Assembly (NCBI GenBank): GCA_947632035.1
Contig: CANRNR010000002.1
Span: forward strand, 1-64,000
From: an uncultured Clostridia bacterium
GTDB lineage: Bacteria > Bacillota > Clostridia > TANB77 > CAG-508
Length of the DNA: 64,000 nucleotides
Direction: 5' to 3'
The notes under the pieces were generated by a model. It was not told the DNA's origin. It saw nothing but the letters and a program-made list of their open reading frames with translations, and ran no database searches. Positions 48,088 through 51,193 of this stretch are shown one piece after another (position 1 is the first letter of the stretch; every line of letters begins with the position of its first letter). The position numbers and the translations under genes were made by a program.

Positions 48088-48164
48088 TGGTGCAACTGGA
48101 GGGATTCGAACCCCCGACCTTCCGGTTCGTAGCCGAACGCTCTATCCAACTAAGCTACAGTTGC
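48088..48164 (-). tRNA. tRNA-Arg (anticodon ACG)
   Basis: Reverse complement GCAACTGTAGCTTAGTTGGATAGAGCGTTCGGCTACGAACCGGAAGGTCGGGGGTTCGAATCCCTCCAGTTGCACCA; anticodon loop CTACGAA. Confidence 0.85.
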
Positions 48165-48272
48165 ATAACGTAAATATTATAGCATGAACATTAAAAATAT
48201 TCAATGGAAAATTTTAAAAAAATCTTGCAAAGTGAGAAAAAATATGTTATAGTATATTGGTACCTAAAAAAT

Positions 48273-48348
48273 CGAGGCGTAGCGCAGTTGGTAGCGCGCG
48301 TGGTTTGGGACCATGAGGTCGCAGGTTCGATCCCTGTCGCCTCGACCA
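48273..48348 (+). tRNA. tRNA-Pro (anticodon UGG)
   Basis: CGAGGCGTAGCGCAGTTGGTAGCGCGCGTGGTTTGGGACCATGAGGTCGCAGGTTCGATCCCTGTCGCCTCGACCA; anticodon loop TTTGGGA. Confidence 0.85.
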
Positions 48349-48351
48349 ATA

Positions 48352-48390
48352 AAAACCGTTGTAGCTGTAAGACTACGACGGTTTTTTCTC
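48352..48390 (+). terminator. rho-independent terminator after tRNA-Pro
   Basis: AAAACCGTTGTAGCTGTAAGACTACGACGGTTTTTT. Confidence 0.7.
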
Positions 48391-48490
48391 TTAAATTAAA
48401 AAGTGTTATCAAATGTTTTTTTAAAATTAGTCTTTTTATATAGACCATATCATTAAAATATGTTATATTATATAATAAAAGGAGATTTAT

Positions 48491-49453
48491 ATGTCAAATT
48501 TAGATATTTATTATGATAGCTTAACTGAAGCTACATGGTTTGCATCACTTAATCCAGAGTTTAATATGGATGATAATAATTATTATATTATAAATAGACG
48601 TGGTAATAACCCACAAGTTATTGAAGAAATAACAAAATATGATAAACCAGATATAATAGTATTAAAGGATAAAAAACCAATACTAGTTATTGAAATGACA
48701 CAAGAGGTTCCAACTGGTCATAATGTTGGACAAAGATTTGCTAGACTTGTTAGGTCAATTGAAATGGAAACTCCCGCTATATATTATTTCCCATTTGATG
48801 CAAAAAAGCACGGAAAATATTCTAGTATTTGTAACTTAAATATTAGATTATTAAAAGCTGCTAAAAAAATGCTTTTAATACACAACACACCTTTATTATG
48901 TGTAAATTGGTTAACAGATAAAAATGGAGAAATAATAACAGATGGTACTGAAAACAATCGTATTAAAGAATTATTAGCTTCTTATGTTTCTAGCAATTAC
49001 AATAAAAATTGTATAGAATTCGAAAAAGAACTAATAAATATGGAAAATGAGTATAATAAAAGACTAAATATTAGACCAGCTTATGCTGATTTACCACCAT
49101 CAGTTTCAATAGAACAAACAAATAATATTATAAATAAATTTCATATTGAAGATGCAGACCAATTCTTCAAAAGTAAACTTCAAACATATGTATATACTAT
49201 TGAAATGACACCCCAAAAATGTAAAAGACAAGATCCATATACAGGTACAACATTTATTTATGACTATATAGCATGCAGAAATGGAAAAAAAGTAGAAGAC
49301 AAATCTAACAATTTAGCTTTATATTTTCCTAACATAGAAAAAGAAGAATGGTTTCAAAGAAATCCTAATGATTTATCAACAAAAAGTTCTAATTGGTACT
49401 TAACAGCAAATATTTTATTATTTAAAAATGGATATCATATAATAAGGAGTTAG
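48491..49453 (+). CDS. hypothetical protein, putative restriction endonuclease subunit (PD-(D/E)xK-like)
   Basis: 320 aa; KPDIIVLKDKKPILVIEMTQE resembles a degenerate PD-x(n)-ExK/Q nuclease core. Translationally coupled (1-nt gap) to the next ORF and convergent with a C5-MTase. Confidence 0.45.
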   Translation: MSNLDIYYDSLTEATWFASLNPEFNMDDNNYYIINRRGNNPQVIEEITKYDKPDIIVLKDKKPILVIEMTQEVPTGHNVGQRFARLVRSIEMETPAIYYFPFDAKKHGKYSSICNLNIRLLKAAKKMLLIHNTPLLCVNWLTDKNGEIITDGTENNRIKELLASYVSSNYNKNCIEFEKELINMENEYNKRLNIRPAYADLPPSVSIEQTNNIINKFHIEDADQFFKSKLQTYVYTIEMTPQKCKRQDPYTGTTFIYDYIACRNGKKVEDKSNNLALYFPNIEKEEWFQRNPNDLSTKSSNWYLTANILLFKNGYHIIRS

Positions 49454-49454
49454 T

Positions 49455-49913
49455 ATGACAGAGGAAGAAGTATATTTAGGGACAAAAAATTATCTTATAA
49501 AAAATAATTTCACTATTCTTGCAGGTCAACCACCTAGGGGAGTTGATCATATACCAGTAATCGAAATAAAAGAAAATTCAACTGATAAGGGTTCAAAATT
49601 TTCTTACAAACCAGATTTAATTGCATATAAAAATTTTTCTTTTATAATAATAGAATGTAAGCCTAGTTTTAATATAGAAGACTATAAAAAATTAAAAAGC
49701 ATTATAAACAATAATACTAGATTAGAAAAATTATTTATTGAACTAGAACAATATAATTTATTTAAAAAAATAAATTATACTAATTCTTTCGAAGAATTCA
49801 AAAAAAACATTAAAATATCTTTAGCATATTCAGGTAATATAAATACACAATATAATGATATTAATCATATTTGTGTAAAAGATTTTAAAGGAGTAGCTAT
49901 TTCAACAATATAA
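49455..49913 (+). CDS. PD-(D/E)xK nuclease-fold protein, putative restriction endonuclease component
   Basis: 152 aa; clear PD...ExK arrangement: ...GVDHIPVIEIKE...KPDLIAYKNFSFIIIECKP. Confidence 0.5.
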   Translation: MTEEEVYLGTKNYLIKNNFTILAGQPPRGVDHIPVIEIKENSTDKGSKFSYKPDLIAYKNFSFIIIECKPSFNIEDYKKLKSIINNNTRLEKLFIELEQYNLFKKINYTNSFEEFKKNIKISLAYSGNINTQYNDINHICVKDFKGVAISTI

Positions 49914-49924
49914 AAAAGAACTTA

Positions 49925-51193
49925 TTATTTAAGTTCTTTTCTTTGTATTATATCATTTGCAATAGGTTTAGTTATTTCATAAATTAATAATGGGGGTACC
50001 GCATTACCAGTTTGAACTCTTTCCTGCACAATTCCGCCTAAAAATTCATATGTGTCTGGAAAACTTTGTATTCTTGCTCTTTCTCTTATACTTAATCCTC
50101 TTGCCTGTGTTGGATGTCCAAATTGAAATTGGGGTCTAATTCCACCAGCTAATTGGGTTGGACTAGGCATATCTAATCTTAATCTAATTCTTTGTTTAAA
50201 TTTTTTATACATTGGTTCACCTGGAACAGTATTATTAATTTTTTCAATAGTTTCTTGAGGATGATTTGGTGCTATATGATTAAATATTTTTTTCGATTCT
50301 TCTTGTTCCAAATAAGGTGATTCTCCTCTCATCATCCTTTGAAATTCGTTTTTGGCAGTACAATTATAGTTTTCTTTTTGCTCATTATTATTTAGGCTAG
50401 GCAAATCAGATATTGCTTCTCCAACAGTTCTAAACTTAGTCTTTCCTAATTCAATATTATCTGTATCTGAAAATTTTCCTTCTGGAAAAACATATCTTTC
50501 AGATAATCCAGTATTTCTTTTTACACCAACAAATAATAAACGGATTCTAGTTTGTGGAACTCCATACTCTGCAGCATTTACTAATTTTACGGTTGTATTA
50601 TATCCTAATTTATCCATATAATCTTTTATATCATTTTCAAATTTTCCACCTGCAGTAGTCCTCAAACCTGAAACATTCTCTAATATTATATAATCCGGGT
50701 TAAATATTTTAATATATTTCATATATTCTAAAAATAGGAAGTTTCTTTCATCATTATCATTATGTTTTCTATTTGCTATTGAAAAACCTTGACATGGTAC
50801 ACCTCCAGTAATTAAATTTATATGTTCTATCCCATAGTCTTCTAATTTCTTTTTTACCAATTCAGGAGGAACGGTTCTAATATCACCTAAGCAGCCTAAT
50901 GCCTTTGGATGATTATGTATCCATGTAGACATTGCAGGTTCTAAATAATCAATTCCAAATACAGATTCAAAACCCGACCAAGCACAGCCGACAGAAAAGC
51001 CACCTGCTCCACAAAACAAATCCATCATTAATAATTTATCTTTATCAGGTTTTTTAAAATTTTTTTCATTCAAAAATACTGCACTCTTTGTATTCAAATA
51101 AGAACTTTTTTCTACTGGAATATTCTTATCCCATACATTTTTTCCTTTATGTTTATTATTTTTTTCAGAAAGTGTAGTTTGCGTATTGCTCAT
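49925..51193 (-). CDS. DNA (cytosine-5)-methyltransferase
   Basis: Motif I DLFCGAGGFS, motif IV GGVPCQGFS, motif VI ILENVSGL, motif VIII QTRIRL, motif X GNAVPP. A large target-recognition region lies between VIII and IX. Confidence 0.9.
   Translation of the reverse strand: MSNTQTTLSEKNNKHKGKNVWDKNIPVEKSSYLNTKSAVFLNEKNFKKPDKDKLLMMDLFCGAGGFSVGCAWSGFESVFGIDYLEPAMSTWIHNHPKALGCLGDIRTVPPELVKKKLEDYGIEHINLITGGVPCQGFSIANRKHNDNDERNFLFLEYMKYIKIFNPDYIILENVSGLRTTAGGKFENDIKDYMDKLGYNTTVKLVNAAEYGVPQTRIRLLFVGVKRNTGLSERYVFPEGKFSDTDNIELGKTKFRTVGEAISDLPSLNNNEQKENYNCTAKNEFQRMMRGESPYLEQEESKKIFNHIAPNHPQETIEKINNTVPGEPMYKKFKQRIRLRLDMPSPTQLAGGIRPQFQFGHPTQARGLSIRERARIQSFPDTYEFLGGIVQERVQTGNAVPPLLIYEITKPIANDIIQRKELK

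Follow-up and report, generated by a model that had tools for sequence, protein, structure and literature searches.

The 64-kb stretch of DNA analysed here (positions 1 to 64,000 of contig CANRNR010000002.1, from an uncultured Clostridia bacterium; hereafter, the window) contains two coupled open reading frames (ORFs) that face a gene for a cytosine-5 (C5) DNA methyltransferase. Are these ORFs the endonuclease that goes with the methylase and, if so, what kind of endonuclease is made from two genes? The original prediction, based on the letters of the sequence, saw here a restriction-modification (R-M) cassette, in which a two-subunit, possibly heterodimeric endonuclease is served by a single C5 methylase, lying in accessory-type DNA beside tRNA genes. 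Comparative analysis supports this core reading, through the conserved pairing of the two ORFs, natural fusions between them, the company they keep with methylases and the variability of the chromosomal slot. In our judgment the three-gene locus is very probably a Type II R-M cassette of ∼2.9 kb with a split endonuclease of the BtsI/BsrDI type, and this confidence applies to the explanation as a whole: split enzyme, C5 methylase, variable slot and a likely CASTG target. The cassette is an unannotated new branch of a known kind of enzyme, not a new kind of system.

From left to right, the cassette consists of ORF1 (+), ORF2 (+) and the convergent methylase gene (−). ORF1 (48491–49453, +) encodes the putative large subunit (320 aa, 37.5 kDa), in which an N-terminal non-canonical nuclease site precedes a recognition/central region. 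ORF2 (49455–49913, +) encodes the putative small subunit (152 aa, 17.7 kDa), a minimal canonical PD-(D/E)xK nuclease (E3, E37, K39, P53-D54, E67-x-K69). In keeping with the translational coupling that had been proposed for these two ORFs, a single nucleotide lies between them, with the ORF2 ATG beginning 1 nt past the ORF1 TAG and an AAGGAG box 5 nt before that ATG. The third gene (49925–51193, −) specifies a protein of 422 aa (48 kDa), the presumed protective partner. By sequence it is certainly a C5 DNA methyltransferase, with matches to PF00145 (E 2.4e-63), TIGR00675 (E 6.5e-53) and the PADLOC model MTase_II (E 4e-92), and all of the motifs claimed for it are present: I (DLFCGAGG, aa 58), IV (GVPCQGFS, aa 130), VI (ENV, aa 172), VIII (QTRIR, aa 214) and X (GNAVPP, aa 396).

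Each ORF had been said to carry a PD...E(x)K-type signature. ORF2 does so canonically, with E37, K39 and P53-D54-X12-E67-C-K69 invariant in 38 homologues. ORF1 has the PD and the E but not the lysine of ExK. Its signature, P53-D54-X13-E68-X12-Q81-R82, is invariant in 50 homologues, as is D9, and the residue that follows E68 (M in the window) varies across the family, so the motif is not PD-ExK. The codons of this catalytic block (KPDIIV ... VIEMTQEVPTGHNVGQRF) occupy 48644–48739 (+). The motif recurs across the superfamily: of the proteins recovered by profile search, most of those with ≥300 aa have it. Given 394 homologues of ORF1 and 58 of ORF2, all of them unnamed or hypothetical, and given that the pairing is conserved, the two ORFs are, on sequence grounds, no chance feature.

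To what known proteins are they related? The AlphaFold model of ORF1, a confident one (pLDDT 91.8), was compared with the PDB using Foldseek, and the matches were four BsmI entries (E 5e-9 to 7e-8, query-normalised TM 0.62–0.68), with no other structure below E 0.06. The model thus has a BsmI-like fold across its predicted N-terminal plus central domains. Sequence searches of the PDB (phmmer and the family profiles A1 and A2) gave nothing useful for either ORF, and phmmer with a 608-aa single-chain relative (P0308) found no match to BsmI. When the ORF1 profile was broadened with distant relatives (A3), BsmI was the only PDB match, marginal at E 0.003 and covering 82 positions, and the alignment places the ORF1 block on P90-D91, E109 and Q122-R123 of BsmI. 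ORF2 has the restriction-endonuclease fold. Its structural matches are generic, and its Pfam scan gives only sub-threshold matches to Hjc and AHJR-like families. No Pfam domain was found in any standard-length member of either family.

That ORF1 and ORF2 belong together is indicated by their distribution. In a scan with one genome per species, the two genes were adjacent in 13 of 14 loci, drawn from Clostridia, Oscillospiraceae, Acidobacteria, Alphaproteobacteria, Coriobacteriia, Pelagibacteraceae, Gemmatimonadales, Woesebacteria, Woesearchaeota and Nitrososphaeria. Only L013 departs from this, with a degraded copy in which the ORF1 and methylase matches are broken into pieces. An exhaustive profile search also uncovered single-chain proteins of 488–496 aa (P0187, P0189, P0206) that join an ORF1-like N-terminal part to an ORF2-like C-terminal part; in P0187 the latter shares 46% identity with ORF2 (E 5e-30). 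Because such natural fusions exist, the two products probably work as one enzyme, and we predict from the same large–small fusions that ORF1 and ORF2 associate physically as a heterodimer.

The company of a methylase is conserved as well, although the methylases come from two unrelated classes. An orthologous convergent C5 methylase (45–57% identity) follows the pair in L004–L008, with a degraded copy in L013, and a convergent C5 methylase (PF00145) also follows it in L018–L022. In the archaeal and Candidate Phyla Radiation (CPR) loci L009–L012 and L014, where the relatives of ORF1 and ORF2 show 34–44% identity, two convergent N6/N4 methylases of the PF01555 family (∼270 and ∼390 aa) take the place of the C5 enzyme. 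Since the nuclease pair stays linked while the methylase class is swapped, these loci point to an R-M system.

To predict a recognition site, we counted pentamers on both strands and compared them with the maximal-order Markov expectation. In the window, CASTG (CAGTG, read as CACTG on the opposite strand) occurs 2 times versus 30.7 expected (39 from base composition; z = −5.2) and is the most depleted of the 481 pentamers tested, the next having z = −3.0. CASTG also ranked first of 512 in a pool of 12 other independent cassette-bearing loci (166 kb; 47 observed, 121.1 expected; z = −6.7, next −4.0), and again when L007 was removed from that pool (21 versus 92.3; z = −7.4, rank 1/512). Taken singly, L003 and L004 have CASTG as their most depleted pentamer, L005 and L013 as their second and L018 as its third; in the 16.9-kb locus L003 the word is absent altogether (0 versus 12.4 expected). 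By contrast, it was unremarkable in four cassette-free loci (39 versus 44.8; z = −0.9, rank 89). These data suggest that CASTG is probably the target of the cassette. They also indicate that one can guess a recognition site by pooling word depletion over short contigs that carry the cassette.

We considered whether the loss of CASTG could instead reflect deamination of 5-methylcytosine (m5C). The C-to-T products of CASTG (TAGTG/CACTA and TACTG/CAGTA) are not enriched, so mutational decay at m5C is no obvious cause. The word AAGTG/CACTT shows an apparent excess, probably an artefact of the Markov expectation in the absence of CAGTG. A literature search on CASTG, or on CAGTG with m5C methylation, returned nothing relevant. 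Both of the CASTG sites left in the window (41855 and 42278) read CCASTGG and fall within a gene for an HtrA-like protease (41442–42587); this shared context could be chance or a tolerated flanking context.

As CAGTG and CACTG are reverse complements of each other, duplex CASTG is quasi-palindromic, and the cassette methylase is predicted to modify its outer C on both strands. Because the site would offer this C twice, one methylase may suffice, which would account for the single methylase of this cassette as opposed to the two of BtsI and BsrDI.

How would such an enzyme work? Each of the two unlike subunits would hold one active site. The large subunit would recognise the site and nick one ('bottom') strand with its non-canonical PD-X13-E-X12-QR centre. 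The small subunit, with its canonical PD-ExK centre, would need to be docked on the large subunit to cut the other ('top') strand. Following BtsI, we predict that both strands are broken at the edge of the site, with a 2-nt 3′ overhang. The convergent C5 methylase would protect host DNA. Of this picture, the genes present, their motifs, the fold, the pairing, the linkage to methylases and the depletion of CASTG are observed, whereas the roles of the subunits, the geometry of cleavage, the base that is methylated and the equation of the depleted word with the target are inferred. A more specific proposal, to which we give a little less than an even chance, is that the subfamily might consist of heterodimeric Type IIS enzymes specific for the 5-bp site CAGTG, a natural counterpart of an engineered BtsI variant, R119A, which cuts CAGTG (PMC2909958). 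Were this so, the central G:C pair of the quasi-palindrome alone would set the orientation of the enzyme on DNA; one C5 methylase acting symmetrically on CASTG would be a different answer to the rule that an asymmetric site takes two methylases; and the large subunit by itself would be a natural mesophilic strand-specific nickase.

A number of observations weigh against the assignment to a BtsI/BsrDI-type system acting at CASTG. First, the likeness to BtsI and BsrDI rests on fold, motif spacing and the marginal profile match to BsmI (E 0.003); the family-only ORF1 profile, A1, has no match in the PDB. Neither ORF has an above-threshold match in the Pfam, NCBIfam or PADLOC scans. Second, in L003, a metagenome-assembled genome of the Bacillota, the pair (7980–9394) has no methylase within ∼8 kb, although one may lie elsewhere in that genome. 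Third, L007 has the full cassette and shows no depletion of CASTG (26 observed, 28.8 expected). Fourth, depletion is weak in the archaeal/CPR branch (42 versus 59.2 in the five loci with two amino-methylases; z = −2.2, rank 4), where specificity may differ. Finally, what the word counts record is avoidance by the host, from which we infer this cassette as the cause.

Could the two ORFs serve some purpose other than restriction? One alternative, which we regard as unlikely, is that the methylase is effectively an orphan or regulatory enzyme and that ORF1–ORF2 form a site-specific nicking/repair module, for example a functional analogue of Vsr that attends to damage at methylated sites, and not an enzyme that restricts incoming DNA. 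Small PD-(D/E)xK nickases often travel with C5 methylases, and a Vsr gene does lie by the HpaII-type system in L018; large subunits of the present class of enzyme nick on their own (PMC1950550); and the L003 pair lacks a nearby methylase. However, the active sites of both families are invariant, and it is double-strand cutting that requires two. The pair also accompanies N4/N6 methylases, a setting in which the logic of Vsr, repair after C5 deamination, fails to apply, and host genomes purge CASTG with no rise in deamination products. We rejected a Vsr-type repair nuclease for ORF2 itself, which has no match to the Vsr family (PF03852) and whose fold and motif fit a catalytic partner.

A second possibility is that ORF1 by itself makes an orthodox Type IIP homodimer, with ORF2 as an unrelated accessory, for instance a regulator or a nuclease resembling Holliday-junction resolvases; this appears very unlikely. 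The sole structural relative of ORF1 is BsmI, a monomer with two active sites, and the ORF2-like part of the fusions lies C-terminal of the ORF1-like part, which is the order of the BsmI domains. The pairing in 13 of 14 loci also speaks against an unrelated accessory. The points in favour are the weak Hjc and AHJR-like Pfam matches of ORF2 with its generic fold matches, and the quasi-palindromic nature of CASTG. TspRI is a precedent for the latter: it cuts CASTG as a homodimer, both strands 2 nt beyond the site, leaving 9-nt overhangs.

There is only a slim chance, slighter than for either of these alternatives, that the cassette is decayed or inactive and that another system elsewhere in these genomes is responsible for avoidance of CASTG. 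In favour of this, the copy in L013 is degraded, L007 lacks depletion, and our view of this genome is confined to 64 kb; set against this, the three ORFs in the window are full length and keep every invariant residue, and depletion tracks the cassette across unrelated phyla. Least credible of all, and refuted by the comparative data, is the scenario put forward with the original prediction as its potential undoing, a single-chain gene broken by a frameshift or assembly error: single chains of ∼490 aa do exist (P0187, P0189, P0206) and a gene 3 kb upstream in the window is frameshifted, but fusions are rare and the split therefore natural, being the majority state and the rule in the family (13 of 14 loci, and many separate homologues of 151–165 aa), ORF2 has its own ATG and AAGGAG box, independent assemblies call the same ORF1/ORF2 split, and the characterised enzymes BtsI and BsrDI are split likewise.

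We turn now to the setting of the cassette. The original prediction placed it directly after back-to-back tRNA-Arg and tRNA-Pro genes and called the site an integration hotspot. ARAGORN finds both tRNAs where they had been placed, but as a divergent pair 108 nt apart rather than in tandem. The tRNA-Arg gene (anticodon ACG; 48088–48164, −) is a left-flank chromosomal gene outside the cassette. The 3′ end of the tRNA-Pro gene (anticodon TGG; 48273–48348, +) forms the left edge of a variable slot. This edge is evident from a contig of a congener (L026; 75–86% nucleotide identity), which matches window positions 48319–48363 at 93% and then diverges into a hairpin of its own, a gene for a 313-aa double-zinc-ribbon protein (120–1061, −) and the orthologue of the right-flank gene. 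In a closer relative (L023; 90.5% identity), blastn and alignment show collinearity that begins only at window position 51294 and continues to the right, and unrelated sequence stands where the start of the methylase gene would be. The right end of the cassette, comprising the region upstream of the methylase gene, is accordingly drawn at 51194–51294. Because homology to L026 and L023 ends at these points, we take the slot to be bounded by ∼48364 and 51294. The segment thus shows presence/absence polymorphism among close relatives. A metagenome scan for an empty site with the left-flank methyltransferase had given one irrelevant distant match, and these relatives were then found by searching with the right-flank protein.

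Elsewhere, the cassette occurs in unrelated contexts, with different left flanks in L020 and L021. Other signs of integration at a tRNA gene are few. The three-gene cassette includes no integrase or recombinase gene. Between 47900 and 51500 there is no direct repeat derived from a tRNA; the repeats in this interval are AT-rich chance matches, save one promoter-like 19-mer (see below). The G+C content of the cassette shows no shift from that of the window (∼26–27% G+C). No tRNA gene was found in any of the six other cassette-bearing loci scanned, and a tblastn search of plasmid and phage collections with ORF1 gave no match. The idea of a tRNA hotspot, then, is weakly supported.

Several putative regulatory elements lie within the slot. 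Following the tRNA-Pro gene, a hairpin with a T-run (CCGTTGTAGCTGTAAGACTACGACGG TTTTTT; ∼48366–48391, +), read by eye and not listed by the terminator scan, is a likely intrinsic terminator. A consensus scan gave a candidate promoter for ORF1–ORF2 at 48441–48469 (+), made up of TAGACC, 17 nt and TATATT with an upstream TG; promoter-like matches occur at background density in this AT-rich window, and it is a candidate only. It overlaps the second copy of a 19-nt direct repeat (AAAATATGTTATAGTATAT; 18 of 19 positions identical) found before the tRNA-Pro gene (48239–48257) and again before ORF1 (48455–48473), both copies of which include a TG-extended −10 box. A promoter element of the tRNA-Pro gene may be shared by the cassette or have been copied into it. 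At the other end of the ORF1–ORF2 unit, the stop codons of ORF2 and the methylase gene are 11 nt apart within an inverted repeat (AAGAACTTA TTATT TAAGTTCTT; 49914–49942), which was read from the sequence, lies between and over the ends of the convergent genes and is partly overlapped by repeat I17 of the repeat scan. It is likely to act as a bidirectional terminator.

Related loci and neighbouring genes offer some further observations. In L018, an ENA contig of 28 kb, the cassette has as neighbours an HpaII-type endonuclease, another C5 methylase and a Vsr gene, with a large serine recombinase nearby; together they make up a small defence island on a probable mobile element. A separate small helix-turn-helix (HTH) gene, resembling those of controller proteins, lies upstream in L018. 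Large-subunit homologues of 393–410 aa with an N-terminal XRE-type HTH are encoded in a C. difficile contig (L019, 6001–7233) and represented by P0038, P0045, P0058, P0067 and P0073; from their sequences, they look like a controller protein fused to an endonuclease subunit. In the window itself, a gene for a flavin adenine dinucleotide (FAD)-dependent oxidoreductase (DAO) plus Rieske protein (45392–47012) is split into an N-terminal piece of 68–83 aa and a remainder of 378 aa. This looks like a +1 frameshift near 45620–45626, where dropping one base restores ..TTGNSTAKITSQHGLFYDY.., and the gene is a pseudogene or has been misassembled; the same split occurs in L015, an independent ENA assembly. 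To the right, a few kb past the cassette, lies a gene for a DNA/RNA non-specific endonuclease (PF13930; 56650–57501, −). Further to the left, a gene for a 2472-aa non-ribosomal peptide synthetase (31884–39302, −), with two condensation, two adenylation and two carrier domains and a terminal reductase, adjoins one for a 7TM-PAS histidine kinase (30068–31897, −).

These findings offer a function for two widespread families of 'hypothetical proteins', with 394 (ORF1) and 58 (ORF2) homologues ranging from Clostridia to Thaumarchaeota. Since Pfam, NCBIfam and PADLOC miss both families, defence-annotation tools would label the methylase of such a cassette an orphan. The reading is also open to experiment, in that it predicts cutting at CASTG, marking by m5C and nicking by the large subunit.

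How does the cassette compare with known systems? Enzymes of the BtsI/BsrDI type are classed as Type IIS/IIT, and as 'class III' in a 2010 review of nicking enzymes (PMC3017599). BtsI of Bacillus thermoglucosidasius cuts GCAGTG 2/0 (PMC1950550). Its B subunit (328 aa, 37.6 kDa; D58, E72, Q85/R86) recognises GCAGTG and nicks the bottom strand alone, whereas its A subunit (164 aa, 18.6 kDa; D65, E78, K80) has no activity of its own and cuts the top strand once it is part of the heterodimer (Xu et al. 2007, PMC1950550). Mutation of D58/E72/Q85-R86 or of D65/E78/K80 abolished strand-specific cutting (PMC1950550). One discrepancy in PMC1950550 should be pointed out here. Its abstract, like the 2010 review (PMC3017599), assigns PD-ExK to the large subunit and the QR-type motif to the small one; the results and mutagenesis in PMC1950550 show the reverse, in agreement with the arrangement found in the window.

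Several features of BtsI are mirrored here. The spacing of D54/E68/Q81-R82 in ORF1 equals that in BtsI B, and the spacing of D54/E67/K69 in ORF2 equals exactly that in BtsI A. The residue numbering of BtsI B (D58/E72/Q85/R86) recurs in seven members of the ORF1 family, but these are 323–325 aa long, not 328, which does not decide whether BtsI is among the retrieved proteins. Subunit masses are similar (37.5 + 17.7 kDa here, 37.6 + 18.6 kDa in BtsI), and the proposed target, CASTG, is the core of GCAGTG. Sites of the BsmI/BsrI/BsrDI/BtsI family contain, as a rule, an RNTG/CANY core (PMC1950550); as far as word counts go, the purged CAGTG/CACTG is in line with this rule, as it contains AGTG/CACT. 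Differences are also apparent. BtsI has two amino-methyltransferases and its R genes are separated and opposed, whereas there is one C5 methylase here and the R genes are adjacent and co-directional. The present host is low in G+C (26%) and known only from metagenome assemblies, unlike B. thermoglucosidasius.

BsrDI (GCAATG 2/0; subunits B, 56 kDa, and A, 25 kDa) is served by one N6-adenine and one N4-cytosine methylase (PMC1950550). It has in common with the enzyme proposed for the cassette the heterodimer logic of class III and both catalytic motifs, although its subunits are larger. Its R genes are numbered consecutively (ORF1, ORF2) in PMC1950550 and so are probably adjacent, as they are here. 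In having two amino-methylases each, BtsI and BsrDI resemble the archaeal/CPR branch of the family.

BsmI, Mva1269I and BsrI show the same order of parts, i.e. a Cb site, a recognition region and a Ct site. The counterpart of ORF1 is the N-terminal and central domains, and that of ORF2 the FokI-like domain at the C-terminus. However, these enzymes are single chains of ∼600–680 aa, monomeric and with two active sites, only 11–12% identical to ORF1, and they act at other sites (GAATGC, ACTGG). In BsmI, the metal ligands for bottom-strand cutting are D9, D91 and E109, and the FokI-like C-terminal domain serves the top strand (PMC11889245). By motif and position, D9, D91 and E109 correspond to the invariant D9, D54 and E68 of ORF1.

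Two unlike subunits with one active site each are also found in BspD6I/BstNBI and BbvCI/Bpu10I. Bpu10I, like the cassette, uses C5 methylases. TspRI shares with the cassette its set of DNA sites, CASTG being the target proposed here. Among these systems, it is the small BtsI/BsrDI class of split two-site enzymes, the source of commercial nicking enzymes, that gains a branch, one that spans a wide range of lineages among bacteria and archaea and is paired with a different methylase.

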